A DNA stretch of 64,000 bases from IMG/VR virus record IMGVR_UViG_3300049912_000012, positions 14,890 through 78,889 of that record. One strand, given 5' to 3'. Below are positions 21,198 through 41,402 of the stretch, piece after piece. The position numbers were made by a program, and so were the translations under genes. The DNA comes from a virus. The notes beneath the pieces are model-generated. The model made no database searches, was not told the DNA's origin, and saw only the letters and a list, made by a program, of their open reading frames with translations. Position 1 is the first letter of the stretch, and every line of letters starts with the position of its first letter.

Positions 21198-21218
21198 TCA
21201 AAAAATATTTTATAATAG
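21198..21218 (+). promoter_or_regulatory. Repeated promoter-like motif TCAAAAA-n5/6-TTTATAATAG
   Basis: Further copies at 34496-34516, 43472-43493 and a variant at 35332-35353; all lie in or run into intergenic gaps. Confidence 0.6.
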
Positions 21219-21263
21219 TGAAAAATAATCGTTCTTTTCCATTGTGGATTCAAAAATAAGTTC

Positions 21264-21400
21264 TACATTTGCTCTTGATTATTGTAGTGGATTACAGATG
21301 TATCAAGAAAAAACTTACAGAATTGCCCTATGTGCTGATGAAAAATCGTCAGTCGAAAGGCTATCGTTTGTATCCACTACAACGTCAGCCATAGGGTTTC
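21264..21400 (+). promoter_or_regulatory. Bacteroidota -7 promoter (TACATTTG) + alternative-pairing leader RNA, copy 1
   Basis: 21282-21292 pairs with 21372-21382; 21326-21340 pairs with 21383-21396; GAAA tetraloop at 21351-21362. Confidence 0.65.
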
Positions 21401-21429
21401 TTCATAGCTTTTCCCATTGCTTGATTGTA

Positions 21430-21610
21430 TTGAAGCAGAATCCAAAGCGGAGCAGGATATAGAAGTCTGAGAAAGATAAACAAATCCATGCTCCTTCTGT
21501 TAATTGAAGACATGGTCGGACAAAAGAAAGATTTAAAACTCAGCCTTTAACGATGAGGACACTTCTTGACCTGAGTGCAGATGCAACACGGAAGAAGAAT
21601 TGTCCGAATA
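21430..21610 (+). ncRNA. Putative structured non-coding RNA
   Basis: No credible ORF; stems GGAGCA/TGCTCC, TCGGACAA/TTGTCCGA (21516-23 with 21600-07), ACTCAG/CTGAGT. Confidence 0.4.
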
Positions 21611-21996
21611 AAAGAAATATAATATGGAAATAATACTTTCACTCATAGCTTTATTTATTTCGGTACTTTTCTACCTCAGTGTTACCCAAACTCTAAAAGA
21701 TAAAAAGAAAGAGTTTAAGAGGATAAGTGGTATGGATTATGATGAATACATAAAAAAAGAGAGACTAAATAAAAAATGAGAAGGATAGCAAAAGTTATAA
21801 AAGGCAAGAAAGGTTATTTTATCCAAAGAGATGATGCAAAGATCAACTATGACTACAAGACTAAACAATTCTTATACGAATCAGAATTTATAACTACCGG
21901 TAAATTAATAAAAGAATTAAAGGAACAATTTGATGAAGGTTATCCTATCTCTGCAGACCCTAAAGTACTAAAGTCACTTGAAAAACTATTAGACAA

Positions 21997-22197
21997 ATGA
22001 AACATAAAGATACTTTTCTAACTAAAAAACAACTTCTTCACAGATTAGATGATGCTGATTATAGACTTGAATATTTTAAAGAATATTATTCTAAGTTAGA
22101 AAGTGATAATAAAGCATTGCAAAAACAACTATTTAATATGGATAGGAAGTACTATGAATTATTAAATAAAAAAAAGTGGTATCAGTTTTGGATATAA
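21997..22197 (+). CDS. Coiled-coil peptide ending KKKWYQFW (paralog of 47301..47510)
   Basis: Directly alignable over its full length with 47301..47510. Confidence 0.7.
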   Translation: MKHKDTFLTKKQLLHRLDDADYRLEYFKEYYSKLESDNKALQKQLFNMDRKYYELLNKKKWYQFWI

Positions 22198-22225
22198 ACG
22201 TCCTATATAATATAAGGTATAACCA

Positions 22226-22249
22226 AGTAATTTTAACTTTAAAAATGCT
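22226..22249. repeat. 24-bp palindromic site AGCAATTTT-N6-AAAAWTRCT-like, copy 1 of 8
   Basis: Other copies at 24151, 27864, 28089, 28800, 31132, 32755, 48772. Confidence 0.8.
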
Positions 22250-24728
22250 AAGATGGAGCCAAGAGACATAGAAAACCCTATTATTGAAAAAGACTTCAGA
22301 CACCAGTTAAATACTCTCTACGCCTTTTTATACAACCCTATGATACATGAGAGCGTCCCAGGCATTGTAAGCATCCACAGGACAAGGGAAGGGGCTGAGA
22401 AAGCCTTGGAGTGGCACAAGAACGAGGTAAGAGAAGAGTGGAAGTACAGGGGTGCTCCTGAAGAATATCCATTTGACTTTTGCCAATGGTGGGGAATAGA
22501 AGAAATACAAATACAAGACTAACTATGACAATAGCACTTATAATCATAATAATTCTACTAATAGGGATTATTATTCTTTTTGCCAAATTATTCTCTGACT
22601 GTTTTAAATGGCCATCATGAAAAATAGCTTTGAACAAAAAGTCCTAATTTTCTATCTAATACTGACAGTTATCTCAGTAATAACTGTAATTATAATAATA
22701 AATTTAAAGTACTTCTGATGAAAGACCTAATCAAAAAAGGCATAAAGACATTAAAAGACAATGGATACAAGCCTAAAGCTATTTGGCAAGATGGAGACAA
22801 CATCTATATAGTAACAGACAACATAGACAGAAGTAAATACGCTAAACTAATAAAGAAATTCAAATGAAAGAGAAACTTTATACTGAACAAATATTCTTTA
22901 GAAGAACCAAGGGTGGGAAAATTGAGACAGCGTGGCTAACCTTTAATAGCAAGTGGCTAGCTCAAAACAGAGATGTATTTGCGAGAGCAATAAAACAACA
23001 TATCGGGGAAGTATCAACATTATGGGGATAATATTATGAAAGAAAGACAATTTTACATTCAGCATGGATATGTAGGCAATGCTATGTGCTGGTGGAGGAA
23101 AGGAGACAGAGGCTACTCTACCAACCTCTCAGAAGCAGGCAAGTACCCTGAGTCAGTAGCAAGACGACAGGCAGCATGCAGACCTGAAGAAGATACAGCA
23201 TGGCCTGTAGACTACATCAACGGCAACAAGAAAGCCCACAAGAAGGTTGTAGACAGTCAGTACTGCGACTTCTCAGAGATGATATATGTAGCTAAAAAAG
23301 AGAAAAAGCTATGCAAAGCAGATTATGATATGTCAACTTCAAGAGATTAAGATATGAGAAAGTGTAAACTTTGCGGAGATTTAACAGACACTGTATTCAA
23401 CATAGACTTTAAAGCAGTACCTGTTTGTGAAGGCTGCGCTGCTTCCGTATTTCTACAACAAGCTAATTGGTATATAAAAGAATCTATTTCTAAAATTCAC
23501 AAAACTGTAGAAAAAGATAATAATAACATCTTTAAACACATAAACGAATGAAAACATTTTTTACATACGAAGAAGATGAAGCATATCGTCAAGGACGAAA
23601 AGATGCTGACTATGGAAGAACTGATCATTTTAGAACCAGTAGAAGCTTTGCAGAATACGACACACCTGATAAAGCATACTGGATAGGACAGGATGAACGC
23701 AAGCACGAGAAAGATGTTGCTGAGAGACAAAGAGAATATTGGGATGAACAATATGATAGATGGAGGAATGGATAAACAAGCAAGGCATGAATGAAAATGA
23801 ATTAATGCTCGGAAATTACTATGCTATCGCAGAAAATGACGGAATTAAATATAAACAAATAACATATCTCATTCCTTCTGCCGAAGAATGGTTTTCAGAT
23901 GGAGACAATATATCTCGTGCAGCAAAATCAGTTCCATTAGACCAAGTATGGATAAAATTATTAGGATTTAAATGGATAGGAAATCCCAATAAAACAGATA
24001 GTCTTGTCATTACTCACTTTTCTAAACCAAATATAGAGATAATTTATTCTGACAAATATGGGTATAACCTAAGAGATATTAATGTAAAAATAAAATATGT
24101 TCATCAATTGCAAAACCTTTGGTTTGAACTTACAAAATTCAAATTAACCAAGCAATTTTAAAAGTAAAAATGCTATGAAATACTGGATAGAACTAACAAA
24201 GCCTGAGATAGAACATTTAAACAGCCTCCTGTCACTAAACGAAAACTACGGATGCTACTACGGCTCTAAGATGCAATATTGGAACAGACACAAGAGACTA
24301 TGTACTAAGCTAGACAATATATCTAAAGACCGCTATATGTTCAGATCACCTAAAACAAAATAAGATGAAAAAGATAACATTACCAGAAGACAACCTAAAA
24401 CAAGACGAATATAAATTATACATAAATGCTCCTAGCTACGAAAACCAGAGGGCAAGGATGGAATTTGAAATAAAAAGAAATAAAGAACTATTGAGATTAC
24501 AAAAACAACGAAATAATTACCTTTATATATTATTAGTAATTGTAATTGCAATTTTTGTTATACTTCTTATGTCCTGTAATCCTAAAATGTCCAACATAAT
24601 AATAAGAAAACAACTTATATACGACAATATATCTGTATACTACTTCGGAGACTATAAGTTCTTTAGCGACTCAACTCGCTATGAGCCAGGAGATACTGTC
24701 AAAGACCTTCATGAAATAAGCTACAAAG

Positions 24729-25085: not shown

Positions 25086-25655
25086 ATGTCAAGTAATTTG
25101 TCACGAAGATACACCTTATTTCTTACATTATCAAGTTTCTTGTCATATACTTATTAACACTTGTCAAAAAACTTGTCAGAGTGTTTTCCGTTGGAATTGT
25201 TTTTCCGAAATTTTTCCCAAGGTGTTTTCTTCTTGAATTCTTTCTGCAAATTATCAGAGAGCGTGTCCACCCAGGCTTCCCTCCCCTACCGGTCAAGCCT
25301 GCCAGCCGGTCCCCTGGCAAAGGTCCTGCCAAAGGTATGTATATATGACTAGCTAGCTGATCATGTCTTAAATAGCCTGCAAATAGGTCCCCTTTGAATG
25401 TATGTATAAAGGATTAAGGCCAGGGACAGGTCAGTGATGTGACCTTTCCCGGATATTTGCCAAAGGTTTATTTAATACAAGTTAGTTAGTTGTGATCTAT
25501 GATATATATTTATTTAGTTTATTAAGTGTATTTCTTACACTTAAATAAGTTATTGAATTTGCTGTTAATAAGTGTTAATTATACACTTATTAGTTATTTA
25601 TTAACTAATTATTAAGTTATATAACTATGTTATAATTAGTTGTGCATGGTTATTG

Positions 25656-25663
25656 TATATTTG
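25656..25663 (+). promoter_or_regulatory. Bacteroidota sigma-A -7 element TATATTTG for the early region
   Basis: Matches TAnnTTTG with TTG upstream; precedes the first AT-rich early ORFs. Confidence 0.5.
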
Positions 25664-25786
25664 CAAATGTTAGTTATTTTAAGGTTTATTTAAAATAGTT
25701 AATATTCTATTAATACCGGTTATTATTCTATGTATATTATATGTTATTGTTTCATACCTTTATATAGTTAATTAATACATAAAGCT

Positions 25787-28700
25787 ATGAAATACGTTCA
25801 AACTTTGTCATTTAGGTCTAATCGTAAATTTTTATCTGCTGAATTCATTAAGGACCGTAATTTTGATATTAACTTTCGTATCAATTTTAGGGCTACATTA
25901 GTACGTCATTATGGTACATCTTTGCGCCATGACTTGCATACATCTACTTACTTACGATATGCATTGGTTGACTAAATTGACTTACTGTTTGTTTCTTCAC
26001 ACTTCACTAATATACTAAAGCTATGTCACACAATTCACAGGCTAAAAAATTAGCTACAGTTTTGAACTTCGGTTCACTTTCTTCACTTTCTTATGATGAC
26101 TTAATTAAGGACCTGGATAATAGGTTTGCTTCTCCTTCTCATAAGTCCCTATATACTTATGATGACTATGTCGAGCAATACAAGGAATATGGCTATAATG
26201 GCAAAGTTTGCTATGTCTTCACCCCTTATAATGAATATGACGAGGACCTGGATAAAACATGGCATTTCACTACTAATATTTTTACATTGATTGATATGAT
26301 TTTTAAGCAAATTAGTCTATTATAGCCTTATTTGCCATTTTTAGCTTATTTGCGCTATTATCATATTGTTTTGATATATTGGTATTGTCTATTATTGTCA
26401 ATACCTTAAATTGGAAGTAATTAACTTTTATTAATAATCTATAATTATCCAAATTATGAAAAATTTAACTTACTTATTGCCTTATGTACCTTTGTATATT
26501 TTTGTTGGTACATTATTGATAACATTAGTTGTCAGTTTTATTAAAGTGTTTATTAACTCTAAATTAAGGTAATTATGAAAACTCTTAAATTACATGAAAT
26601 AATCAGTTTATCTGATGAAGGTAAAAGTTCAATGTTAATTGAATTGTTAGTTCCTTACAAAAATAGCTTATTAACTTATTATCGTAATTATCATAATTGC
26701 GAGCCTGTTTTAATGGTCACTGATGTTTTTAATTCATGTTCATATGGTTTAATTGTACCTGATAATGAATTCAGTGAAGCTATTTGTACATATTTGGATA
26801 ATTACGATTGTATGAATGAAGATAATGAAGATTATAGTACATATGAAACTATATGTTTTAATTCTATTGCACTCGAAAAATTATAATTGTATAACTTAAT
26901 AATTAATATAATGAAAGAAAATTATAGATATTCCAATTTTGCGTCTCATTATAATGGTATTCATCCTTTACAAGTTATGAGGCGATATGTTGAATTCATA
27001 AGTAAAAAAATTAATGCAGGTATTCAATATGATGAAGATACAATGAAAGATTATATAAGGTATTCAAATTTGACTAAAATTAATTAACATGAAAGATCAG
27101 TTTATAAAGCTATTAGATCAGTATATTGATGATATTATCCAGGATACAAGTTTAAATTATACCTGCAAATCTTTTATCGTTGATCTGAGTAAATTATTCA
27201 GAACCGGAATAATTAATTTTTTTGCAAGTGTTGAAAAAATAAAGAAAAATAATAAATAAACAATTTAATCTTAATTACAATGAAAAATAAATTAGATCAA
27301 ACTATTTGTAACTTATGGCATATCTCCAGGACTGCACTAGCTAAAGAAGATTATTCCAGGCATTCCAGAATGTTATACATCAAATTTGAATTAAACAGAA
27401 CGTATCCGGAATTAATCAAAGATATGACAAATAAACAGATTTGGTTCACTATTGAAGATGAAACAAGTCCAGTAAAGTATTAACAATTTAATTTTAATCA
27501 AAGATGAAAAATATAAAAAGAGTTTATATAACTATTGATAATAAGTTATATATAAAAGTTCATGGTTTATTAGTTCAGACAAAAGTTATTAATCTTAAAC
27601 ATATTTAATTATGAAAAATATTGAACGTTTGGATTATATCCGGGATGTTGAAAATAAATTGCTTAATCTTAAAAAAGCAATGTTTGAACTTACTGAAATA
27701 TGGTTAAATGATTATAAATATGATATTGATCTTAATCAATATTTAAATGAAAATTATCCATTTGCAGATAGTTTTGATGATCAACAAATAAGTGTTGGTA
27801 AATGGATAATTAATGCAAATAAAGAATTATCAGAACTTAAAAAAGATTTACAGAATGAATAAAAGCAATTTTAATATTAAAAATAGTTATTTATTAATCA
27901 AATAAAGTAAAGTTATGGAAAAAATTGATTACTACAAATTACAAGTTAATAAAATTAACTTTCATTTAGATTACCCTGCAAAAGTTTTATTTGTTGATGA
28001 AAATAATAAAACTAAGTTTTTAGACCTAAATAAAGAATCTGCAAAGGTTATAATAGATAAACTTAAAACAGAATTCAATATAGATTAAAGCAATTTTAAA
28101 GTTAAAAACACTAAAAATATAAAATTATGAGATACCAGGAAATTAGAAAAGAATCAGAAAAAAAACGCAATCAGTTAATAAATGATTGTAATGTATTTTT
28201 TGCATTCAGTAATGAACAATTTGCAGAAGGTAAAAAAAATAACCCTATTGCAGAAGGTGAAAAATATGTAAGTATTGGCGCAGGTGGATATATGCCAAAA
28301 TCAAAATATAAGTTATTTAGTGACGGCTTGGATAATATAAATAAATGGGAAAAATCAGAAATAAAGAAAGTAAAAGAAAATAAAGAAAAACACATCTTAT
28401 TTGAGTTACGAAATCATGAATGTTTTTATATTGGAGACATTAATGATGTTATTCATTATCTGCCATATAATAGAAAAGATATTCAGCAAGTTTTTAATAA
28501 ATATAAGACTACAGAAATACAATACTAATAACTAAAACAATGAAAACACTAAAGGAAATTTTAGAAAACAATGAAGCTTTTATTTTATCAGAATATGATG
28601 AAATAGTTTATAACGCAATGGACCACGAAAACCATAAGAAAGGGAAAAATAGTAAAGGGGAGAACGTTTTTAATATTGTTTATTCTATTTATGCTGTAAA

Positions 28701-31132
28701 CTTAAAAGATAATTACTGTTTTGCACAAAATAGAAATGCATGGGGACAAATAACAGATGAAACAATTAAATTAAATGAATTGACTATATATGTAAAGTAA
28801 GCAATTTTAACTTTAAAAATACTAAAGATATGAAAAAATTACTCAAAGATTATGATTTAAAAACTGATTTTGATTATTATGAATTAATAGTTAATTCAGT
28901 AATTAACGGAAATAGAACGCAAGCTAAAGAACAATTTAAAGCAATGCCAAAGATAAACAGAAAAGAGTTTATAAAACATTTATTGATTTATTCAGATTTA
29001 TATGATGAATTTACTCATTCTGATAAAATTATGTTTATAGATCAATTTTAAGCTATTCAAATAACATTTGATAGTCTTATATTCCTGTAATTGTTTGAAC
29101 GTCTTAAAACGTATTAAAATAGCATTGTATTGAAGTTTATTAACCAAATAAATAAAGTTATGAAAAAAGAATTAAACATTACTAAAAATGACATTCAGAA
29201 TGTTATTAAAGATTTACGCAAAAATTTAGAAAATCTTTTTGCTTGCGAGTTTTATACTTTTGAAGAGTATAAACAAAATTTAGATGAATTAGAAAACTTT
29301 GAATTGTATTTAACATTTAATAATTAACCAAATTATGAAAACAAAACTTATTTCCAGGATTTACAGAGATATACAAGCAAGAAAGCAATGTATAAAAACT
29401 ACAAATTTTGAATGGTTAAATAAATGGACTGATCATTTAGAATTGTTAAATAAATCTTTGCCGTCTGGTTCTGGTATTGATGCAGGATGCAAAATTGATA
29501 TTCAGAACAGTAAAGAGGATAAGATAATAATATCATTTAGTTATCATCATCTTAACGAAAATGGATATTATGACGGATGGACTGATCATAAATTAATTCT
29601 CAGACCTACGTTTGATGAATTTAGCATGAAGATAACAGGCAAAGATAAAAACCAGGTCAAAGATTATCTATATGATGTTTTTTACTTTGCATTAAATAAG
29701 GAAATAGAATTTACTGCAATAGAATAAGTTTTTAGCTTGTTTTAGCTATTATCTATCTTAATTGATAGAATATACTTAACAATTATTTAATTGTCTTAAA
29801 TCGTCTTATTTTAACTAATAAATAAATATTATGAAAACAAAAGAAATTTCCTTTAAAACAATTCAGAAAATAAAAGTTAATAATAAATTAGCTGAACAAT
29901 TGCAGACTATTGAAAATATTACTTTTGATCTATATTATAAAAATCAGGGTAATCATTCATTAAATATAGATCAGTTTAAAAAAGATATTGCAGATTATGA
30001 TAATGATTTTACTGATCTTAATGCAGATAATTTTATTTATATGATTATGCAATTTTGTGAAATAAATCAAAGATTATTAATTGAAGAATCTAAAAAGTTA
30101 ATGCAATGAAAACAAGATTATACAGAGTTAAAAAAGTTCCTTTATGGTATTATTCATGGTTAAATAAACAATACCTTAATGATGATAAGAATAAATATAC
30201 TTTCAAAGATTTTTATTGGTATTGGCATGGAGATCAAAAAGTATATGGATGTTTTGTAATGAATAATAATAATCTTTGGAGTAATCCACAAGTATCAATA
30301 AATGACTTATGAAAAATGATAGTGAATATACAGAAAAAGAAATTGACAATTTCCTATTGTTTGCAGACTTTGAGATAATAGAAGATATACACGATTGTCA
30401 AATGATACCAGAAGAATTAAATTTTAGAGAATTCCTGGAATTGTACCAAAAAAGACATTTACAGAAATATGGAAGTTATTTAACTATAAAAAATTAAAAA
30501 AATGGAAGAAGTTAATTTGAATGATGAAATTTACATGGCATTAGTTGATAGTGCAGAAGATTACAATGATGATGATTTGTCACAATTTAGAAAAGATAAA
30601 TCTAATTGTGAAATTGCAGAAGCAATTTGTAATATGCTCGAAAAAAGAGGATATGTATTGATGCAAAAGAATTGGAATTATGAAAATAAAATATACTTAA
30701 AGAGATGAATACATTAACAATGAATCAATGGTATGAATTACTAAAAAATAAACCTATCAGTAAAATAGAGGAAACATTACAAGATACGTTAAAAGAGATT
30801 AAATTCTTAGAAAGTATCTATACTACCGGAGGAGAATTAAACTATTTCTCAAAACAATTTAGTGATAGTGCATATAGAGAAAGAGAATATTTTTGTCAAT
30901 TATCATCAGCTTGTTATAAACTATTAAGAGAATTAAGACCATGAAACAGAAATTTATCTATTCCCTTATGGATGCAGGGACAGAAAAAGAAGTTAGTAAC
31001 ATTGTTACTGATAACCTGGAATTGCTATTTAACTATCCTGAACTTTGGAGATATGTAAGAAATAGTAAAAGAAGAATTAAGAGAATTAAAAGAGAAAAGA
31101 TGAAACATTGGTATGTTTTTGAAATGAACTAA
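25787..31132 (+). other. Very AT-rich early region of ~20 small hypothetical ORFs
   Basis: Co-oriented 60-133 aa ORFs with AT-rich spacers, typical of phage host-takeover regions. Confidence 0.7.
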
Positions 31133-31178
31133 GCAATTTTAAAAATAAAATTACTAAACTTATTAATCAAAAAAGAAA

Positions 31179-31814: not shown

Positions 31815-31832
31815 ACTTAATATTTAACCAAA

Positions 31833-32132: not shown

Positions 32133-33688
32133 AAATACTATCCTTAGAATCAAAAGGAATAGTTAAGATAGACTTTGATTATAACATGGATGACTGGTAT
32201 AGAATCAGATCATTGAGTAATGTCACCATGTATGAAAGAGAATCTTATTCTATTCCTTATTCAGAAGAAGTTTTAAGTCAGCTACAGAAGTGGAAATTTG
32301 ATATAAGTGAAGACCTGCAAAAGTTCATAGATGCAGAACGTGAAAGGAAAAAGAATTTCCAGGTAACAGGACTAAAAGGAATTCTCAGACCTTTTCAGAA
32401 TGAAGGTGTGAACTTTATGATAGACAAAAGCGGAAGATGTTTATTAGCTGATGATCAGGGAATTGGCAAAACAATCCAGGCAATAGGCTATCTTCATCTT
32501 AACAGAGAGATAACTGTTATAATCTGCCCTTCTTCTATTAAACTGAATTGGCAAAGAGAATTAGAGAATTGGTTAAATGAACCAAGTATTGAGATATTGA
32601 AAGGAACTAAGCCTTACAAAACTAAAGGAGAGATTTTAATTCTCAATTATGACATTGCAACTTATTGGATTGAAGAGATAAAAAGGAGAAAGCCGGAAAT
32701 ATTAATCTTAGATGAGATACAGAAGATAAAGATGAAAACTGCAAACAGGACTAAAGCAATTTTAAAGTTAAAATCAGTAAACAAGATTATAGGTTTATCC
32801 GGCACACCTATCGAGAATCGTCCCGAAGAAATATTTAATGCAGGAAAGTTAATCAGACCTGACCTCTTTGATACCTTTGATAGATTTAAGAGAGAGTTCT
32901 GCAATGGCAATGGATTTGGTCATGAGTTTAATGGTACACAAGATACGCATTTATTGAACTTCTTTTTGAAGAGTAATTTTATGCTTAGAAGATTGAAAAA
33001 AGATGTATTAAAGGAACTGCCTGAGAAGAGTTATAGTCTTGTGCCTATGGAACTGACAAATAGAAAAGAATATGCAAGTGCAGAAGCAGATTTTATATCT
33101 TGGGTAAGAAGAGAGAAAGGAGATGAGAAAGCAGAAAGGATAAAGAATGTAGAAGCATTGGCAAAGGTAGAAGGTCTTAAACAGTTAGCAACGAAAGGAA
33201 AGCTGAATCAGGTTAAAGAATGGATTAAGGATTTTCTGGAGACGGGCAACAAGTTAGTTGTATTTTGCACTCATACCTTTGTCGTTGATGAACTGATGAA
33301 AGAATTTGAAGGAGCAGTAAAGATAGACGGGAGCACAAGGGACAGGCAGAAGCCTGTAGATATGTTCCAGAACGATCCTAAGACACGATTGTTTGTTGGT
33401 AACGTACAAGCTGCCGGAACTGGAATTACATTAACTGCAAGCTCTAATATAGCCTTAATTGAATTTCCTTGGTCGCCTGCCCTCATTGATCAATGTTCTG
33501 ACCGAGTGCATAGAATTACACAAAAGGATGCAGTAATGGTTTACTACTTACTTGCACAGAATACTATTGAGGAGAAGATAGCAAAACTTCTCGACAAGAA
33601 GAGAAAGATGATAGCTTCAGCAATGAATGGAACTGAGGCAGAACAATCAGAACTTTTGGTTGAATTAATTAATAGTTATAAATCTTAA
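32129..33688 (+). CDS. SNF2-family (SMARCAL1/HARP-like) helicase
   Basis: LRPFQ, LADDQGIGKT, LDEIQ, LSGTPIENR, GTGITLT, DRVHRITQ. Confidence 0.9.
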   Translation: MKILSLESKGIVKIDFDYNMDDWYRIRSLSNVTMYERESYSIPYSEEVLSQLQKWKFDISEDLQKFIDAERERKKNFQVTGLKGILRPFQNEGVNFMIDKSGRCLLADDQGIGKTIQAIGYLHLNREITVIICPSSIKLNWQRELENWLNEPSIEILKGTKPYKTKGEILILNYDIATYWIEEIKRRKPEILILDEIQKIKMKTANRTKAILKLKSVNKIIGLSGTPIENRPEEIFNAGKLIRPDLFDTFDRFKREFCNGNGFGHEFNGTQDTHLLNFFLKSNFMLRRLKKDVLKELPEKSYSLVPMELTNRKEYASAEADFISWVRREKGDEKAERIKNVEALAKVEGLKQLATKGKLNQVKEWIKDFLETGNKLVVFCTHTFVVDELMKEFEGAVKIDGSTRDRQKPVDMFQNDPKTRLFVGNVQAAGTGITLTASSNIALIEFPWSPALIDQCSDRVHRITQKDAVMVYYLLAQNTIEEKIAKLLDKKRKMIASAMNGTEAEQSELLVELINSYKS

Positions 33689-34042: not shown

Positions 34043-34492
34043 ATGGAAAAATTATTGCAGAAACTAGCATGGAAATATGCCAGACAAGCATTTAACAATG
34101 AACTGAGCATAGACTTTGAAGAGTTGATGGCTGAAGCAAATTTAGCCTATCTGGAAGCACTCAGAACGCATGATGAAGAGAAAGGTAAGGTAACTACTCA
34201 TATCTGGAATACAGTCTCAGGACATCTTCAGAACTACATTAAAGAAGAGATGAAGCACAAGCATATAGACTTTTCAGAAGTAGATGTTCCTAAGTCTTCT
34301 GTACCATACTTTGAAAAGCTGAGTAAAGAAGCACAGTCTGTTGCTAAGATTGTTATTGATGCTCCTGAAGACTTTATATATATGACAAAAGAAGATGCAA
34401 AAGGTAAGATCATTGCAAGACTTATGAATAATGGAATAGACTTTAAGAAGATTTGGAGAGGCATTGAAGATTTAACACTTATTTATTCTTAA
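34043..34492 (+). CDS. Sigma-70 region-2-like protein
   Basis: FEELMAEANLAYLEA..HDEEKGKVTTHIW pattern. Confidence 0.6.
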   Translation: MEKLLQKLAWKYARQAFNNELSIDFEELMAEANLAYLEALRTHDEEKGKVTTHIWNTVSGHLQNYIKEEMKHKHIDFSEVDVPKSSVPYFEKLSKEAQSVAKIVIDAPEDFIYMTKEDAKGKIIARLMNNGIDFKKIWRGIEDLTLIYS

Positions 34493-35340: not shown

Positions 35341-35363
35341 TTTTTTTATAATAATAGAAAAAT

Positions 35364-36674
35364 ATGTATAAAGCAGCACTAAAAGAAATGATAGTCAAGC
35401 TAGACCTGAAAGAAAAAGGTGTACCTTTGACAGTGACAGGAGAAATGACAGAAGATGAAGGGAGAAATCTTATCATCAAGGCTATCGAGATACTTAATGA
35501 GAATGACTACTTCTCAAAAGAAACTACGGCAACACTTGCTATCCTTGGATGGGATAGGAAAACAGGATGGGATAAATCTAAATTAGAAGTCAAGCCATTG
35601 AAAGAATCTAAACCTATAGAAGAATTTGAACCTATTGAAACAATGGTTGAAGAATCGGCAACGTCACTTCCTGGTTTTATAGGTGAGGCAAAGACTTTAA
35701 AAGAACTAAAAGAGATATGCAAGTCAGAACCAGAATTCAAAAGCATAAGGGGAAGCCTTGCTTCATTTAAAGACATGGAAGGACTTAGGCGGGAAATGAT
35801 AGGAATTTTAGAAAACCCTATTATTCCTGGAAAATTACATGAGAAAATAGAGAAAGAACATATAAGAATTCCGAAGGTTGATCTTCCTTCGCAAAGAGAT
35901 ATAAACTTGATTATGACACGTCCCCCGTTTTCTTCCCTATTTGAAGTAAATAAGACAATTCTTAATGTCGTTACAGAAAACATGCAGAAGAATGGGTATG
36001 ATAGTGCATTCCCTATAATTCTTTGGGGAGATATTATTGTTGATGGTCATACAAGGTTGAAAGCTGCTATCCTTAATGGGCTTGACAAGGTCCCTGTCGA
36101 AGTAAAAGAATTTAAAGATGAGAAAGAAGCATTAAAATATGCTATCCATAACCAAAGAGACAGGAGGAACTTAGGAGATGCAGAACTCCTAAGATGTATA
36201 AGGGAAATAGATCAACCTTTGTCAAAAGTAGAGGCAGGGGCAAAAGGAGGCAAGGGGGAATCGGAACATATAGAACCCACGCATAAGGTTACAGCTAAAG
36301 TTCTTGGACTTGGACAATCTGTTGTATCTGATGCAAGGACTGTATTAGCTGATGAAGAAGCTACAAAAGAAGTAGAAGAAGGAAAGACTACAATTCGTAA
36401 GGCAGCTAAAAAGGTAAGAGCAGCCAAGCAGAAGCCAAAAGAAGTCATTGTAGAACCTAAGACTTTAATTGAAGTAGTTGCCAAGGTACTGAGAGAAAGT
36501 GCCGGGGAAGAAGTCCTGATACCTTCTATCGTTGAAAAAAGTTCTAAGTTAGCAAAAGAAGAACTTGCAGTAATGGAGGAGGTAGTAAATAATGTTCTTG
36601 AAGTATGTATCGCTTTAAGGTTAGTAAAAGTATTGACAGGAGATAAGATAGCAATTAAAAAGATATTGAAATGA
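35364..36674 (+). CDS. ParB-like protein (ParB N-terminal domain + HTH)
   Basis: IVDGHTRLKAA, NQRDRRNL, HTH TAKVLGLGQSVVSDARTV. Confidence 0.8.
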   Translation: MYKAALKEMIVKLDLKEKGVPLTVTGEMTEDEGRNLIIKAIEILNENDYFSKETTATLAILGWDRKTGWDKSKLEVKPLKESKPIEEFEPIETMVEESATSLPGFIGEAKTLKELKEICKSEPEFKSIRGSLASFKDMEGLRREMIGILENPIIPGKLHEKIEKEHIRIPKVDLPSQRDINLIMTRPPFSSLFEVNKTILNVVTENMQKNGYDSAFPIILWGDIIVDGHTRLKAAILNGLDKVPVEVKEFKDEKEALKYAIHNQRDRRNLGDAELLRCIREIDQPLSKVEAGAKGGKGESEHIEPTHKVTAKVLGLGQSVVSDARTVLADEEATKEVEEGKTTIRKAAKKVRAAKQKPKEVIVEPKTLIEVVAKVLRESAGEEVLIPSIVEKSSKLAKEELAVMEEVVNNVLEVCIALRLVKVLTGDKIAIKKILK

Positions 36675-36874
36675 AATTTGAGATTGTAAAAGAAACTAGA
36701 AAAAACGATATTTGGTATCATATTTATAAAGATAACAAATGGGAAAAAGTATTTATGGATTATGGTGATGCTAAGAAATATATTGAAGATACTATCTACG
36801 ACATTCAGCATCCTCCAATTATCGAAACTATTGAAACAATTGAAATATAATTTGCATAATTGAATATTCTTTTG

Positions 36875-36990
36875 TATCTTGCAATCGCATACTAATTACA
36901 TCATGAATCTAAAAGAATTTATAAATGCCCCAAAGGTAGATGCAATGAATCCGCAAGGTGTAATTGGTATGCCATCTACCGGAGGGGTTT
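36875..36990 (+). promoter_or_regulatory. Promoter + alternative-pairing leader RNA, copy 2
   Basis: 36887-36902 pairs with 36957-36972; 36928-36942 pairs with 36973-36987; GCAA tetraloop; U-run follows. Confidence 0.65.
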
Positions 36991-37002
36991 TATATATTAC
37001 CA

Positions 37003-38535
37003 ATGAAGAATTATTCATCAGGAATCTATATGATTCAATCTTTTTCAAAACCAGAAAGAACTTATATTGGAAGTGCGGTAAATATTCAACAAAGATGGTG
37101 GGTACATTTATGTAACTTACGCAAGAATAAACATCATTCAAGCAAGTTACAACATCATTATAATAAATATGGAGAAAAAGATTTAAATTTTATTATTTTA
37201 ATTTGTTGCGGTAAAGAAGATTTGATTAAAAATGAACAATATTTTTTAGATTCGCATAAAACATATTTTAATACTAACATAATAGCAAGTAGCGCATTAG
37301 GAATTAAAAGATCACCCGAATTCATTCAAAAACTCAGGAAACCTAAATCCAAGGAACATGCTAGAAAAATGGGAGATACTAAGAAAGGAAAAGATACTTG
37401 GAATAAGGGAATAAAAAATTGTCATTCGGATGAAACATTAAGTAAAATGCAATATGAAAGAACACCTGAATGGAGAGAACATAGAAGGAAATTAATGACA
37501 GGAACGGTAATGTCAGTCGAGTCAAGTAAGAAAAAAGGTGAATATATGCTTGAATACTGGACATTAGTAAAAGCGGGTATATTACCAAAACGTAACTATA
37601 AAAAAAGAAAAGACATGAGCAAATCAGCACCAACATTAGAAAATCCCTGCAAAAAGTGGATAGACTTTAAAGCAGACGAAGGTAAATTTTATTACTTTGA
37701 TAAATCTATTGGAGAAAAAGGAAAGAATATTGAAGTTCCTACGCCAATCTATTTTTCGGTTTTGGATGAGTTAAGTCTAATTACCGGATTTAATAAGCGA
37801 CATGACAGTGGAATCATAAGCAATGAGGTTAGTTCCGTTGTTAAAGAAAAATTAAGAGTGCGAACATTTAAAGGAGGCGAATCAGTTGTTGGATTTTACT
37901 CTGATGTAAAAGATAGCATTATAGCTATGGGTGGTAAATTCACTAAATCAGTGTACGCTCTCTTAATTAAAGATGATAGTTCAACAGAATTTGTAAACTT
38001 TAAATTCAAGGGAGCAGCATTCTCTGCATGGCTTGACAAAGGCTTCAACCCTATGAACTTCATAGTAGGTGTGACAGAATTTGTAGAAGAGAAGAATGGA
38101 AACAACACCTACCAAGTTCCTGTATTTAAACCTTTCAAGAGTGATCCCAACATAGATGCTGCAGCAGTAGAACAGGACAAGGTTCTTCAGGAATATCTTA
38201 AAGTATACAAAGCTCAGATACCAGAGAAAGAAGTGGAAGTAGCTGCATCGGTAGAGGAGTCCCCACAAATGAAGACTGATCCTTTCCCTGCATCCCCTGC
38301 ATGGCATGGAGGTAATAAGTCTAAACTACCCCCGACAAAAGAAGAACTTGTAGAAGAAGCTAAGAAAGCTATGGAAGCAGGAAAGAAAGGAAAGCAATAT
38401 ACTCCAAGTATGACCGATCCACAAGAACTAACAAAACTGTCAAGAGGTAAGCAGGAAGAACCATTTCCACAAAGAGGTGAAGATAACTCTCCTGAGTTCG
38501 ATGATTCTGATGAAATTCAGAAATTACCCTTTTGA
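37003..38535 (+). CDS. GIY-YIG/NUMOD3 homing endonuclease in frame with a conserved phage replication/recombination (SSB-like) protein starting at 37615
   Basis: SGIYMI..TYIGSA..RWWVH; NUMOD3-like HSDETLSKM; second ATG MSKSAPTLENP at 37615; acidic C-terminal tail ending LPF. Confidence 0.7.
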   Translation: MKNYSSGIYMIQSFSKPERTYIGSAVNIQQRWWVHLCNLRKNKHHSSKLQHHYNKYGEKDLNFIILICCGKEDLIKNEQYFLDSHKTYFNTNIIASSALGIKRSPEFIQKLRKPKSKEHARKMGDTKKGKDTWNKGIKNCHSDETLSKMQYERTPEWREHRRKLMTGTVMSVESSKKKGEYMLEYWTLVKAGILPKRNYKKRKDMSKSAPTLENPCKKWIDFKADEGKFYYFDKSIGEKGKNIEVPTPIYFSVLDELSLITGFNKRHDSGIISNEVSSVVKEKLRVRTFKGGESVVGFYSDVKDSIIAMGGKFTKSVYALLIKDDSSTEFVNFKFKGAAFSAWLDKGFNPMNFIVGVTEFVEEKNGNNTYQVPVFKPFKSDPNIDAAAVEQDKVLQEYLKVYKAQIPEKEVEVAASVEESPQMKTDPFPASPAWHGGNKSKLPPTKEELVEEAKKAMEAGKKGKQYTPSMTDPQELTKLSRGKQEEPFPQRGEDNSPEFDDSDEIQKLPF

Positions 38536-38951
38536 TCATGCAAACAGCATTAGAAACATTAAGTATTCTGCCTGACACAAAAGATCAGGTAGAAATATTC
38601 AAGAGTATGCTCAAAAAAGAGATACTTAGCTGTCCCTATCCTCTTCAGGTACTTGTACATTTAAAGAGATATGAAAAGACCTTTGGAGACTTGCTGAAAG
38701 ATGATGATCTTGATACTTGTTATCTTGCATCATTTAAAAACGAGGCTAAAGATAATAAGCTAACTGTGGAAGGAGCAAGCCTTACAAGTCAGGAATTTGG
38801 AGGCACATATGACTTTTCCCATGATATGGAATGGGTAAAACTTGACAAGCAGATAAAGACTCTTTCAGAGATTAAAAAAGGAAGGGAGAAACAACTTCAA
38901 GTAGTAGTTCCTAAAATAAATGGGAAGCTAAAAATAGCGGTGAAACTATGA
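38532..38951 (+). CDS. Hypothetical recombination-module protein
   Basis: 139-aa ORF overlapping both neighbours. Confidence 0.5.
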   Translation: MIMQTALETLSILPDTKDQVEIFKSMLKKEILSCPYPLQVLVHLKRYEKTFGDLLKDDDLDTCYLASFKNEAKDNKLTVEGASLTSQEFGGTYDFSHDMEWVKLDKQIKTLSEIKKGREKQLQVVVPKINGKLKIAVKL

Positions 38952-39421
38952 AGAAGATTCAGGCCATTGGATATAAGCGAGAAGATGAACCTTTTCAGAT
39001 GCCAATGGCTAATACTTTTCGTCAACAACTGGATACCTTGCCTCCAGGGAAATACCAGGTAACAGTGGAGAAATATGTCAAGAAAGCTACTCATTCTCAA
39101 TTCAAATATCTTTATGGATTGGTTTATAAATTAGCAATGATAGCAGGTAATGATGCCGGATATGAGTTTAAGACAATAGATGAGGTAGATATATTCTTCA
39201 GAGGTCTATTTGCTAATAAGGAAGTCCTAAATCGTGAAACAGGAGAGATAATGCTTCTCCCCTTATCTAAGAGTGAGTTTTTAACTATTGATGAACTTGT
39301 GTATTGTGACACTATCCGTAATTATGTGAGTGAATATTGGAATACAAACATACCTGATCCTGATCCTCGTTATAAACAAAATAAAGACAATGCTACCAAA
39401 CCATGTAAAGATATATCTTAG
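38948..39421 (+). CDS. NinB-like recombination protein
   Basis: KATHSQFKYLYGLVY, ETGEI, IPDP motifs. Confidence 0.5.
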   Translation: MKKIQAIGYKREDEPFQMPMANTFRQQLDTLPPGKYQVTVEKYVKKATHSQFKYLYGLVYKLAMIAGNDAGYEFKTIDEVDIFFRGLFANKEVLNRETGEIMLLPLSKSEFLTIDELVYCDTIRNYVSEYWNTNIPDPDPRYKQNKDNATKPCKDIS

Positions 39422-39662
39422 ATATTTTGATATTGGAGAACAAGACATCTGGTATTGTGAAAAGTGCAATCAATCCTTTCATATCAATAGTGGATTAAAT
39501 ATCCATCATATTAATGGTAGAGGTAAAGGGAAAGATGTAATCGAAAATCTAATGAGCCTTTGTCAAGAAAAATGCCATAGCCTTGCTCATAGTTCTAAGG
39601 AGTATATAAGTAAACAAGAGTTTCAAGAGATACATGATAAATTCTTAAAACGACATAAATGA
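39389..39662 (+). CDS. Small HNH-family nuclease
   Basis: CEKC, IHHINGRG, ENLMSLCQEKCH; likely start MLPNHVKIY. Confidence 0.7.
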
Positions 39663-40306
39663 TTACAAGAACTCCAAGATTAAAAGTATTAAATCTATAC
39701 GCTGGATTAGGAGGTAATCGTAAGTTGTGGGAGAATGTACAAGTAACAGCTATTGAAAATAATGAAAGCATTGCTAAGTTTTATTCCGATCACTTTCCTT
39801 ATGACGCAATGATAATTACAGACGCACATCAATACTTACTCGAACACTATTCAGAATATGACTTTATATGGAGTTCAATAAACTGTCCGTCACATTCAAG
39901 AGCTAGATTTTGGGCAGCAAAGCCAAACAAAAAGATTAAACCTGTATTTCCTGATATGAAACTATATGAAGAGATACTTTTCCTAAAACATTATTTTGAC
40001 GGTAAATGGATAGTTGAAAATGTTGTCCCATTCTATACTCCACTAATCAATCCTACAGTAAAAATAGGGAGGCATTACTTTTGGTCTAATTTCGCTATCA
40101 GCCCAGTAAACATAAAAGAAGCTGATATAAACAGGGGAGTAAAAGATGAATGGCAAGAATTACATGGTTTTGACATCACCGGTTATAAGTTCAATTCCAG
40201 AAGAGATAAGGTTTTAAGAAATTGTGTACATCCAAAACTAGGACTGCATATCTTAAATTGTGCATTGAATAAAGAAACAGCAACACAAACAAGACTACTA
40301 CTATGA
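39659..40306 (+). CDS. DNA (cytosine-5) methyltransferase-like protein
   Basis: LNLYAGLGG (motif I), SINCPSHS (motif IV, NC in place of PC), ENV (motif VI), RHYFW. Confidence 0.75.
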   Translation: MITRTPRLKVLNLYAGLGGNRKLWENVQVTAIENNESIAKFYSDHFPYDAMIITDAHQYLLEHYSEYDFIWSSINCPSHSRARFWAAKPNKKIKPVFPDMKLYEEILFLKHYFDGKWIVENVVPFYTPLINPTVKIGRHYFWSNFAISPVNIKEADINRGVKDEWQELHGFDITGYKFNSRRDKVLRNCVHPKLGLHILNCALNKETATQTRLLL

Positions 40307-40969
40307 AACAATCTGAACTAGACTACAAACAAGAAACAGGACTCGCTGCTAAAATAGTTTATGCAAAATGTCCTGATTGTGGTGCATATATGATGAGTAC
40401 TGAACTTATGGAAGAAGGATACATAGAATGGCTTGAAGAAAAGTACGAGCATTACCTAAAATGTCAACAAGCACTATTAGATGCATCTGAAGTCTCAAAA
40501 CACGATTGGGATAATGCAGTAAACGAAATAGGTCAACTACAAGATCAGTTAAGTGATGCAATGGATGAAATTAGACAACTAAGCAGACGATGAAAACATT
40601 AAACGAGATAAATAAAGAGATAGTAGAAGCTCATGCTATCATGGTAGAGGCAAATAAGCTAAGTACTAAAAAAGCAGAAAGGCTATACAAAAAGATGAAC
40701 AAGCAGATAATATGGCTTAAACATATAAAACGCTATCTTGAATCTAACCCTAGACCTGAGTTTGTACAAAGTGAACTAGAGACTGTTATAATGAGGATAG
40801 GACGCATAGACGAGGGATACCTAGTATGGGCAGCAGGAAGAGCAATAACAGCCTACAAGGACCCTAAGAAGGCTTACACTAACGAGATGGGACTGCCCCA
40901 GCTAAGAGAACAGATGAAAACTCTGAAATATATTTTGAAGTAGGTCTTGTTTATTCGGAAATTGTTTCA

Positions 40970-41115
40970 TAATTTTACAGAACCAAATTAAATTGCAACA
41001 TGGTCTTCAGTAAATTCTTTACTTTATCAATATCCCCTGCCAAAGGGAATAGAGCCATCGGATGGAGGTTGCACTCCTAGGGTCCGGTGGTTTTTATTTT
41101 TGATGGCGGGGGTTT
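40970..41115 (+). promoter_or_regulatory. Promoter + alternative-pairing leader RNA, copy 3
   Basis: TGCAAC 40994-99 pairs with loop GTTGCA 41068-73; long stem 41034-41063 with 41082-41112; U-run follows. Confidence 0.6.
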
Positions 41116-41126
41116 ATATAACCAAT

Positions 41127-41402
41127 ATGAAACTTCCCAAAGGAACTTTACTCCACATGATTAAAAGACAGAAAGGAAAATGCTACTATTGTGGAGATGA
41201 TTTAATTAAATTTGAAATTGACCACATTTTCCCATTTTCAAAGTATAAAAATGGATGTAATTCTAATTTATGTTTAGCATGTCCTGATTGTAATAAAGTT
41301 AAAAAAGTTCTTGAGCCTTGGAATTTTTGGGACTTATGTCTTCGGGAATATCCAGAAAAATTAAAAGACGGAGAATTCTATTACGAAAGAATGAAACTAT
41401 AA
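41127..41402 (+). CDS. HNH endonuclease
   Basis: CYYC, EIDHIFPFS, NLCLACPDCNKVK. Confidence 0.85.
   Translation: MKLPKGTLLHMIKRQKGKCYYCGDDLIKFEIDHIFPFSKYKNGCNSNLCLACPDCNKVKKVLEPWNFWDLCLREYPEKLKDGEFYYERMKL

Follow-up and report, generated by a model that had tools for sequence, protein, structure and literature searches.

An uncatalogued leader-RNA family at the head of phage operons: candidate translation-gated attenuators with a self-pairing 5′ end

In Escherichia coli, a ribosome translating the leader ORF of pyrBI physically blocks the terminator hairpin, and in phage lambda (PR′-6S RNA-tR′) a terminated leader is released by Q antitermination. In temperate elements, the CI RNA of P4 (seqB versus seqA and seqC) and the C4 RNAs of P1 and P7 are processed to stable RNAs that confer immunity in trans, and in T4-like phages free-standing homing endonuclease genes (e.g., mobE) are restrained by 5′ hairpins or terminators. 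Bacteroidota start transcription and translation differently from model bacteria; to our knowledge, they make no use of Shine-Dalgarno sequences, and gene control in their phages is almost unexplored. Leader-peptide control of replication-initiator genes has been described in IncI-alpha and IncB plasmids (repY-repZ, with a pseudoknot and Inc RNA) and in IncFII plasmids (tap-repA, with CopA) (PMC8053102).

A preliminary description of a 64,000-nt stretch of viral DNA (the window, by which the whole stretch is meant) claimed three leaders of one architecture, and every feature attributed to them was found in the sequence, inside true intergenic gaps (21056-21623, 36851-37002 and 40944-41126) of the genome of an uncultured 79-kb Bacteroidota-type phage (Table 1). 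Each leader, ~120 bases as RNA, combines a promoter, a tiny upstream ORF and a terminator-like hairpin, the inside of which is complementary to the start of the transcript. A megablast search of cultured phages with 15 kb of the window gave no match, and a tblastn search of them with its DnaB returned only relatives of <45% identity, so that the phage has no cultured relative. Many close homologues of this DnaB were found, and no relatives of the HNH-91 protein in IMG/VR. No tRNAs were found and no integrase was seen among the proteins scanned in this partly annotated genome, in which a ParB-like gene is the sole hint of a temperate or plasmid lifestyle.

The nuclease genes described behind copies 2 and 3 are both present. 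The N-terminal ~200 aa of the protein encoded behind copy 2 represent a GIY-YIG homing endonuclease, joined in the same frame to phrog_6706, a domain of unknown function, and behind copy 3 an HNH gene is followed by the replication initiator and DnaB. The initiator named earlier was identified as DnaD-like (DUF1376), whereas the "SSB-like" assignment of 38538-39421 did not hold, zero family matches being obtained.

Table 1. Positions in the window of the leader features and of the genes behind them.
Feature	Position	Strand	Details
Copy 1 promoter	21242..21271	+	TTG 21242-21244, 19-nt spacer, box TACATTTG 21264-21271
Copy 1 predicted start site	about 21276	+	from box-to-start distance
Copy 1 segment A and upstream ATG	21282..21300	+	A 21282-21296, ATG 21298-21300
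Copy 1 hairpin	21325..21397	+	B 21325-21340, GAAA hairpin 21351-21362, A′ 21369-21382, B′ 21383-21397
Copy 1 U-rich tail	21397-21405	+	
Copy 2 promoter	36852..36882	+	TTG 36852-36854, 20-nt spacer, box TATCTTGC 36875-36882
Copy 2 predicted start site	36887	+	
Copy 2 segment A and upstream ATG	36887..36905	+	A 36887-36902, ATG 36903-36905
Copy 2 hairpin	36927..36998	+	B 36927-36942, GCAA hairpin 36951-36958, A′ 36957-36972, B′ 36973-36988
GIY-YIG ORF behind copy 2	37003..38535	+	510 aa
Copy 3 promoter	40947..40977	+	TTG 40947-40949, 20-nt spacer, box TAATTTTA 40970-40977
Copy 3 predicted start site	about 40982	+	
Copy 3 weak A and upstream ATG	40994..41002	+	TGCAAC 40994-40999, ATG 41000-41002
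Copy 3 long hairpin	41034..41126	+	B 41034-41042, apical-loop GTTGCA 41068-41073, B′ 41104-41112
Operon behind copy 3	41127..43443	+	HNH, initiator, DnaB
HNH gene, first behind copy 3	41127-41402	+	
DnaD-like/DUF1376 replication initiator	41402 (likely start) to 42097	+	
DnaB helicase	42094-43443	+	

Thirteen further leaders of the same build were found in related IMG/VR phage contigs (16 in all), most of them starting the replication module (initiator, DnaB), the head of which carries a leader in the window, L003, L004, L183, L196 and several DUF1376 loci; this syntenic placement holds in phages with DnaB 36-77% identical. HNH or HNH-like genes follow five of the further leaders (one of these matches is weak); seven others stand before different genes, in four cases immediately before the initiator. 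Because leaders head non-nuclease genes in L003, L183, L233, L276, L268, L001 and L226, they are operon leaders rather than nuclease cargo. Homing endonuclease genes adjoin 7 of the 16; judged from gene order, this link is secondary, leaders in relatives directly preceding the replication initiator. Beyond close orthologues the leaders share no alignable sequence, and a MAFFT alignment of them is meaningless. The three window leaders found no homologues among all fetched loci by blastn, an exact-pattern scan of IMG/VR for the copy 1 hairpin returned nothing, a covariance model built from three orthologues was too specific and recovered no further members, and Bacteroidales MAG loci with DnaB of 41-44% identity carry no such leader; two generic scans for hairpins were uninformative, being either overly lax or overly strict. 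Ten of the 16 leaders were found by a search for A/A′-like complementarity, which makes statistics pooled over all leaders partly circular.

In each window leader, a TTG lies 19-20 nt upstream of a Bacteroidota-type -7 box (3/3 boxes versus 7.8% background), and with spacers of 18-20 nt it is present in seven of the first nine leaders collected, against the same background (~5e-7, a binomial estimate). The -7 boxes claimed earlier fit to different degrees: only copy 1 has the exact TAnnTTTG, the box of copy 2 fits the TAnnTTGY variant reported for flavobacteria, and that of copy 3 has one mismatch; the box occupies -12 to -5 relative to the start site (PMC9723704). The window holds about as many TAnnTTTG sites as expected by chance (95 versus 89), and a promoter-anchored test of downstream complementarity after all its occurrences revealed no general enrichment, indicating that the effect is confined to true leaders.

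The three upstream ATGs of the preliminary description were confirmed. In the window copies, this first ATG is 16-22 nt downstream of the predicted start site; the distance is 14-23 nt in 13 of the 16 leaders, compared with 11.1% of 207 control promoter-like sites. The latter range is kept in 9 of 12 leaders chosen without regard to the ATG, and L004a has no upstream ATG. Segment A is the 5′ UTR of the small upstream ORF, its end being always at or within a few nt of the ATG, and A′ is always inside the hairpin. The upstream ORF of copy 1 (54 codons) crosses the whole hairpin and ends at 21462, that of copy 2 (70 codons) crosses the hairpin and overlaps the GIY-YIG start, and that of copy 3 (26 codons) has its stop inside the hairpin at 41078-41080, the stops being at -162, +112 and -47 relative to the main start. 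Among the relatives, the stop lies at +3 from the main ATG in L196 (an ATGA overlap), +7 in L183 and L285, -2 in L226 and -13 in L003, and at the foot of B in L004b, L214 and L239. The ORFs thus end at widely differing places, their peptides are not conserved, and no regulatory codon runs were found in them.

As described earlier, the stems are GC-rich and followed by Ts: RNAfold z-scores of B/B′ against shuffles are -3.1, -1.95 and -4.3 for copies 1, 2 and 3 (the copy 3 hairpin having -50.3 kcal/mol), and the tails hold 5-6 U in 8. The tail of copy 2 reaches 36998, with the GIY-YIG ATG at 37003, and that of copy 3 (GTTTATATAACCAAT) extends to the HNH ATG at 41127. Across all leaders the tails have 5-8 U in 8 (8 in 8 in L003) in a genome in which U makes up ~1/3 of the bases, and the U-tracts of copy 3, L004a and L004b are poor. 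A generic terminator scan calls none of the leader hairpins because it admits loops of 3-8 nt only. The small GAAA (copy 1) and GCAA (copy 2) hairpins noted previously are present just 5′ of A′. A ~83-nt contig in two other samples, the sole informative variant from contigs of four DNA runs, spans the copy 1 hairpin with B/B′ unchanged and a different loop; GNRA tetraloops were rejected as an essential feature, since this variant has UCAG for GAAA and relatives have other loops. The common 3′ end of copies 2 and 3 (GGGGTTTnATATA..ACCAAT) gives the sole two matches in the window, and the same copies share a 5′ 12-mer (AATTRCAWCATG), so the term "sequence-unrelated" is not strictly true of these two.

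The A/A′ complementarity claimed for all three leaders far exceeds chance in two of them, copies 1 and 2, and is at chance level in copy 3. The duplexes of copies 1 and 2 comprise 14-16 bp (p<=0.001), with -25.2 kcal/mol in copy 1 (p 0.001) and -23.1 kcal/mol in copy 2 (p 0.001), whose 16 bp include two G-U pairs that favour RNA of the + strand, whereas copy 3 has 6 bp only (TGCAAC/GTTGCA; -10.4 kcal/mol, p 0.44). A/A′ is significant in six of the first nine leaders, the exceptions being copy 3, L001 and L183, and in most of the seven later ones; among those found by synteny or by eye without A/A′ (copy 3, L001, L183 and L196), only L196 is individually significant. The letters of A and A′ vary by leader yet remain complementary; in the orthologues L004b and L214, which are 82% identical overall, both A and A′ differ and complementarity is kept. 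Cognate A/downstream duplexes average -18.0 kcal/mol, versus -9.0 +/- 2.7 for non-cognate ones, the cognate partner is the best in its row of the cross-pairing matrix for 13 of the 16 leaders (Mann-Whitney p 2e-9), and the three leaders of the window show zero cross-pairing. In L233, L239 and L276, 7 of 15 B/B′ pairs change on both sides, with 95.6% of cells pairing, and the whole structure contains 10 double-change pairs, against 4.7 in shuffles (0 of 500). Homologues thus bear out the expected covariation, A/A′ and B/B′ being kept by compensatory change, and the layout proposed earlier, with interleaved A/A′ and B/B′ in promoter-proximal RNA leaders and A running into a conserved upstream ATG, is supported.

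These data bear on whether the elements act as DNA, for example as inverted-repeat protein sites or as recombination or homing sites, or are chance look-alike terminators. A does overlap the start site, where a repressor would act, and homing endonuclease genes stand beside the fraction of leaders given above; but each leader has its own A sequence, which no single protein could read in all of them, the A-to-A′ spacing varies (54-86 bp), the G-U pairs and U-tails are strand-specific, B/B′ covary, and the design recurs at the syntenic place in the diverged phages. Chance is rejected for copies 1 and 2 by the shuffle and cross-pairing controls, and this explanation as a whole is very improbable.

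The leaders are an uncatalogued family. That they match no described motif, as first suggested, was borne out by a search of the whole window against Rfam 15 (including group I introns, HEARO, Flavo-1 and riboswitches), which gave no match at gathering thresholds; permissive scans of 21000-21700 and 36600-41500 yielded chance-level matches only (E 0.7-8). Several known classes were considered and rejected: a group I intron (no core in Rfam, flanking ORFs that are separate genes, and leaders without a nuclease gene in relatives); an invertible DNA switch (an A-A′ segment of only about 55-70 bp, no recombinase seen and no strand-switch joints in the contigs of the four DNA runs); a ligand-sensing riboswitch, such as guanidine-IV, in which a loop kisses the terminator (no aptamer sequence common to the members); and a trp/his-type attenuator, for which a short leader ORF is present, but A/A′ and B/B′ share no nucleotides and there are no codon runs.

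The tentatively preferred reading, whose probability is put slightly short of even, is that the three elements belong to a family of promoter-proximal leader RNAs that act in cis at the head of operons, occur in a clade of Bacteroidota-type phages and work as translation-gated attenuators with a self-locking 5′ end. Host RNA polymerase would initiate at the -33/-7 promoter, and segment A, the initial 14-22 nt of the RNA, would serve as the 5′ UTR of the very short upstream ORF. The GC-rich hairpin with its U-rich tail lies some 30-60 nt beyond A and 12-23 nt ahead of the first genuine gene, and would function as a moderately strong intrinsic terminator, past which only a fraction of the transcripts would be extended. 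A ribosome loaded co-transcriptionally on the upstream ORF would enter or cross B, or park at a stop at its foot, and thereby keep the hairpin from closing, so that transcription and translation could proceed into the operon. When no ribosome is loaded, the hairpin would form and its inner A′ would then pair with A, so that the 5′ end would be buried together with the region where the upstream ORF starts, and the RNA would be locked off. On this evidence from sequence, the leaders probably meter expression of the replication and nuclease genes behind them. As Bacteroidota lack Shine-Dalgarno use, the "anti-start" A′ would have no fixed motif, and the leaders would look unrelated because A′ co-evolves with whatever precedes the ATG. 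Against the preferred reading stand the poor U-tracts, the non-significant A/A′ pairs and the variable ends of the upstream ORFs noted above. Moreover, A′ is transcribed only just before B′ and cannot decide termination on the first pass, and the more stable fold of copies 1 and 2 is that with A/A′, which would make this pairing an antiterminator there rather than a lock.

The latter point rests on nested models, in which copies 1 and 2 adopt near-isoenergetic two-state folds with A/A′ beating the terminator by 5.3 and 2.0 kcal/mol, respectively, and copy 3 and several relatives form stable terminator hairpins, onto which A docks only as a loop pseudoknot. In a strict antiterminator, A/A′ would form first and, as the loop that it closes contains B, hinder closing of B/B′ while the polymerase is at the U-tract; read-through would be the default, and termination would ensue only if an initiating ribosome, a protein or an RNA occupied A. 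Transcripts cut before B′ do have A/A′ in their minimum-energy fold in copies 1, 2 and L001, copies 1 and 2 keep it as the minimum even with B′ present, and where A′ abuts B′ (a gap of 0-1 nt in copies 1 and 2, L004b and L214), a pseudoknot of two helices of >12 bp would be sterically hard. The two helices can, however, coexist in leaders with a small apical loop (L004a, L003, L196 and copy 3), a ribosome that occupies the upstream ORF would cover B too, with the opposite outcome, and copy 3 lacks a significant A/A′; a strict antiterminator is regarded as improbable.

In L004a, L003, L196, copy 3 and L001, A′ lies in the apical loop, so that the pseudoknot can coexist with the hairpin, which is 7-25 kcal/mol more stable than the A/A′ fold. 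This arrangement would also suit a leader that sets a fixed dose without any switching, as a leaky constitutive terminator or an mRNA stabilizer in which the A/A′ pseudoknot shields the 5′ end, in terminated and read-through RNAs alike, from 5′-end-dependent RNases and silences the upstream ATG, avoiding translation of terminated RNAs that lack a stop codon. Of the five upstream ORFs that would lack a stop on a terminated RNA, four (copies 1 and 2, L003 and L196) are accompanied by strong A/A′, and A starts at or a few nt from the predicted +1 in most leaders (exactly at it in copy 2). An exact start of A at +1 was discarded as evidence, however, since 55% of control sites (+0/+1) do likewise. 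Fixed dosing would also leave unexplained both the ATG at a fixed distance in 13/16 leaders and the upstream ORFs that end at the main start (L196, L226, L285 and L183) or at the foot of B, and a local 5′ hairpin would be a simpler means of end protection; it is considered unlikely.

Since A/A′ pairs behave as operon-specific addresses free of cross-talk between leaders of one phage, and the leaders head replication modules, a sense-encoded regulator acting in trans, in the style of P4 CI or plasmid copy control, was also weighed: the exposed A′ of accumulated leaders, terminated or processed, would pair with A of new ones from the same operon, or a counter-transcript from a minus-strand promoter within the leader would do so, silencing the upstream ORF, and through it the replication genes, in proportion to genome copy number. 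Exact -7 boxes on the minus strand lie at or beside B in copy 2 (36931-36938, inside B), L003 and L004b (3 seen versus about 0.8 expected), and in L004b an additional A-like copy lies immediately ahead of the main ATG, recalling P4 seqA/seqC. Such boxes are nevertheless confined to three of the first nine leaders, with no counter-transcript terminator seen, and L214, the orthologue of L004b, does not preserve the additional A-like copy. Moreover, A and A′ are on one molecule, where cis pairing should win, and the ParB-like gene is the only temperate or plasmid sign. Regulation in trans is given a low probability.

A broader form of the preferred reading, possible but somewhat unlikely, is that translation-gated self-locking attenuation is a Bacteroidota-specific mode of control, in which a freely evolvable anti-5′-UTR address would give each operon a private, orthogonal channel, terminated RNAs might sense copy number in trans, and homing endonucleases settle behind the leaders. 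If this is true, their genes would repeatedly lodge there, borrowing a tightly metered promoter, and the leaders would give a rationale for the sites that such genes occupy in the phage genomes. A recurrent leader made of promoter, tiny ORF and self-pairing terminator would constitute a simple, testable regulatory module that achieves attenuation without a Shine-Dalgarno or anti-Shine-Dalgarno motif; its design would explain how such leaders escaped sequence-based RNA catalogues, and the A/A′ addresses would offer naturally orthogonal parts for Bacteroidota engineering.

Among the known systems, the IncI-alpha, IncB and IncFII plasmids likewise place a short leader ORF in the 5′ leader of an initiator gene and use long-range pairing with a hairpin loop. 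As in repY-repZ, the leader ORF stops at or overlaps the main start in L196, L226, L285, L183 and L003, and control would operate via access to the leader ORF start region. Unlike in repY-repZ, the loop of the phage leaders pairs with the 5′ UTR of the leader ORF itself rather than with the region before rep, the pairing would inhibit rather than activate, the hairpin is terminator-like, and the upstream ORF of the window copies ends away from the main start; no antisense RNA gene is established in the phage, and there is no sequence homology. With P4 CI and P1 C4, the leaders share complementary segments within one sense-strand, promoter-proximal leader before replication or antirepressor genes and a pairing that would be tied to premature termination. 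The comparison with these RNAs drawn earlier is fair as an analogy of layout but not as membership, copy 3 having no significant A/A′; the phage leaders give no sign of being processed or of acting in trans, and their A′ is complementary to the 5′ UTR of an upstream ORF and lies inside the putative terminator hairpin itself.

With lambda PR′-tR′ and pyrBI, they share the order of promoter, short leader RNA, intrinsic terminator (putative in the phage) and operon, but no Q-like or NusG-like gene was identified in the phage, the leaders have no U-rich pause sites or regulatory codons, and the pairing of the 5′ UTR with the loop has no counterpart there. As in T4-type phages, a terminator-like hairpin stands directly before GIY-YIG and HNH genes, where it would keep nuclease expression low; unlike in those phages, the same leader heads non-nuclease genes in the relatives listed above, which points to an operon leader behind which nuclease genes have settled rather than to a nuclease-specific device.

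Three leader RNAs (copies 1–3) that had been reported in a preliminary description of this phage DNA are real features, located in intergenic gaps that are among the few on the rightward arm (see table), and their folds were more stable than those of shuffled sequences (z-scores −3.1, −1.95 and −4.3, respectively). Pairing between A, the 5′ segment running into the upstream ATG, and A′, its proposed complement inside the terminator-like hairpin B/B′, was assessed using RNAduplex (5′ segment against hairpin interior, 1000 shuffles). This analysis yielded duplexes of −25.2 kcal/mol for copy 1 and −23.1 kcal/mol for copy 2 (p 0.001 each), but a non-significant −10.4 kcal/mol (p 0.44) for copy 3, in which A/A′ consists only of TGCAAC with GTTGCA, the latter in the apical loop; the proposed complementarity in all three copies is therefore only partly confirmed. 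In copies 1 and 2 alike, B is followed by a small GNRA hairpin, A′ and then B′, which A′ directly abuts. Copies 2 and 3, whose ends had been noted to be alike, do share their 3′ tail and also a 5′ 12-mer around the ATG, so that these two are not wholly unrelated, although all three had been called sequence-unrelated. Natural variants of copy 1, seen in two further samples, leave B and B′ intact and differ in the GAAA loop and in part of A′. A search of Rfam returned no match for the three leaders, which had not been recognised as a described motif in the initial description either. The 220 nt at 21400–21623, between the copy 1 hairpin and the first early gene (21624), contain predicted stems and no further ORF.

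Coordinates of the leaders and associated features
Feature	Location	Remarks
Gap holding copy 1	window 21056–21623	predicted start site near 21276
Gap holding copy 2	window 36851–37002	predicted start site near 36887
Gap holding copy 3	window 40944–41126	predicted start site near 40982
Copy 1 upstream ORF	window, end at 21462	54 codons
Opposite-strand TAnnTTTG box	window 36931–36938 (minus)	
Opposite-strand TAnnTTTG box	L003 9124–9131	
Opposite-strand TAnnTTTG box	L004 8744–8751	
GIY-YIG/phrog_6706 fusion ORF	window 37003–38535	510 aa
Third small HNH-like gene	window 39330–39662	PHROG HNH families, E 7e-8
Sigma-factor-like gene	window 34043–34492	rightward arm
Repeated ~30-nt motif (copies)	window 22213–22250, 24138–24175, 28088–28124, 28799–28835, 31131–31167, 32754–32790	

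The Bacteroidota-type −7 box that had been assigned to every copy is exact (TAnnTTTG) in copy 1 only; the box of copy 2, TATCTTGC, matches the TAnnTTGY variant described in Flavobacterium psychrophilum by a study that puts the box between positions −12 and −5, counted from the start site (PMC9723704). TAnnTTTG is not enriched across the window as a whole. An upstream TTG at a spacer of 18–20 nt accompanies 3/3 window boxes and 7 of the 9 first leaders, against a background of 7.8%; therefore, the three boxes were accepted as Bacteroidota-type promoters with predicted start sites.

The window comprises bases 14890–78889 of a single 78,889-bp phage contig (G+C 34%) of a freshwater-sediment metagenome assembly, for which searches against cultured phages found no close relative. 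Late genes run leftward, and the long rightward arm (~21,100–52,300) carries small early genes and also encodes ParB-like, SNF2 helicase, methylase, HNH, GIY-YIG, DnaD-like/DUF1376 initiator, DnaB and sigma-factor-like proteins. A repeated motif of ~30 nt, AAGCAATTTTAA(n3)TAAAAA(n2)CTA, is present in six copies in the window, five of which lie directly 5′ of gene starts on this arm; it is possibly a promoter type for the phage sigma-like protein or a shared translation start region. Although the phage is AT-rich, a 701-bp gap (25086–25786) contains a G+C-rich island (~25260–25470), after which come AT-rich repeats and, at 25656, an exact −7 box. The gap gave no match in Rfam and is a possible origin, packaging site or non-coding RNA.

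Nucleotide searches found no homologues of the window leaders. Leaders of the same design were located in related IMG/VR phage contigs: one in L001, a relative with 77% identical DnaB, lies 5′ of a ParB-like gene, and those of L183 and L196 were located by synteny upstream of DnaB. A scan for terminator-like hairpins with complementarity between an upstream segment and the loop placed L004:8689–8834 at the top and also recovered L003:9051–9207 and L004:1019–1128, and a further scan, anchored on promoters and covering 80 loci that encode DUF1376 initiators, identified L239, L214, L285, L276, L226, L233 and L268, each of them upstream of the initiator and on the coding strand. This brings the total to 16 leaders, including the window's three. 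Most of them head the replication module, and the DnaB proteins of the phages concerned are 36–77% identical to that of the window.

In 13 of the 16 leaders, the first ATG is found 14–23 nt past the predicted start site, compared with 11.1% of 207 control promoter-like sites; the same holds for 9 of the 12 leaders not picked with the ATG in view (~4e-7, binomial estimate). Of the three exceptions among the 16, two have their first ATG at +5 and one (L004a) has no upstream ATG. A extends from about +1 to the upstream ATG, and A′ is always inside the hairpin. In a 16 × 16 matrix pairing 5′ segments with downstream parts, the mean duplex was −18.0 kcal/mol for cognate versus −9.0 kcal/mol (sd 2.7) for non-cognate combinations, the cognate partner was the best of its row for 13/16 leaders, and no cross-pairing was detected among the three window leaders. 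Action through a trans-acting leader RNA or a counter-transcript appears improbable. On the opposite strand, three exact TAnnTTTG boxes were seen at or beside B versus ~0.8 expected; they face back over the upstream ORF start and A, and a counter-transcript from them is conceivable.

The covariation sought in homologues was observed as compensatory changes in both helices. The orthologues L004b and L214 (82% overall identity) have an 11-codon upstream ORF and B/B′ in common, and their A and A′ are rewritten with complementarity kept (−26.5 and −23.7 kcal/mol). Among L233, L239 and L276, 7 of 15 B/B′ pairs carry changes in both partners and 95.6% of cells are paired; the whole structure contains 10 doubly changed pairs, compared with a shuffle value of 4.7 (0 of 500) and with 2–5 when the partner columns were slid as a control. 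A second A-like copy (TTGTAGCGT) at L004 8823–8831, 3–11 nt 5′ of the HNH start codon, could form 9 bp with A′, two of them G-U, and recalls P4 seqA/seqC; it is not kept in the orthologue L214.

RNAs beginning at the predicted start site and ending with B′ were folded with A/A′ or B/B′ forced in turn. The A/A′ fold was favoured by 5.3 kcal/mol in copy 1 and 2.0 in copy 2 and the two folds were nearly level in L004b (−2.2), whereas the terminator fold was favoured by 7–25 kcal/mol in L003, L004a, L001 and copy 3. In these last four, A′ is in an apical loop, so placed that a pseudoknot could coexist with the stem; fixed dosing or a stabilising pseudoknot is, for the family, a rather unlikely alternative. 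A′ adjoins B′ in copies 1 and 2, L004b and L214, where two helices of >12 bp would be hard to form at once, and strict antitermination is judged as improbable as action in trans. The family thus ranges from loop-docking to two-state versions.

The best-supported reading of these sequences, held tentatively and a little short of even confidence, is that they are promoter-proximal attenuators controlled through translation of the upstream ORF. Wherever a leader has such an ORF, a ribosome on it would lie over B, travel past it or halt at its foot; in five relatives, the upstream ORF stops at the main start. A′ would serve as an anti-start sequence burying the 5′ UTR of the upstream ORF and the RNA 5′ end. 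Bacteroidota initiate translation without Shine-Dalgarno pairing; such an anti-start would have no fixed motif and would drift along with its target. The main weak points of the translation-gated reading include the timing of A′ and the fact that copies 1 and 2 rank the two folds the other way round. The leader feature itself is real, its interpretation is partly supported, and the proposed function is a candidate.

Seven of the 16 leaders directly precede GIY-YIG, HNH or HNH-like genes (copies 2 and 3, as described initially, and L004a, L004b, L196, L214 and L285, the L196 assignment being a weak HNH match), and there is hardly any similarity among the HNH proteins encoded by the window, L004 and L196. 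Other leaders lie directly 5′ of an initiator or initiator-like gene with no nuclease (L003, L183, L233, L276, L268), and different genes follow those of L001 and L226. The leader is therefore a component of the operon, and nuclease genes have lodged in the interval separating it from the first conserved gene. The fusion ORF comprises a GIY-YIG homing endonuclease (~aa 1–200) in frame with a phrog_6706 domain (aa 205–402) and resembles a nuclease gene that was either joined to a resident gene or inserted at its 5′ end. The third HNH-like gene overlaps its upstream neighbour, has no leader and has a 52%-identical counterpart in L001. The initiator most likely starts at ATG 41402 (MAKDPAFLFYPNDW, as in ~80 relatives), right at the HNH stop, and the longer reading frame opening at 41336 probably goes unused.

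Among known systems, a similar layout is seen in the leader-peptide control of plasmid replication initiators (repY-repZ, tap-repA; PMC8053102), in lambda PR′-tR′, in pyrBI-type ribosome-coupled attenuation and in P4 CI/P1 C4, the last being the likeness originally proposed, which holds for layout; from each of these, the leaders differ in at least one defining feature. The family was accordingly filed as a variant among promoter-proximal attenuator leaders.
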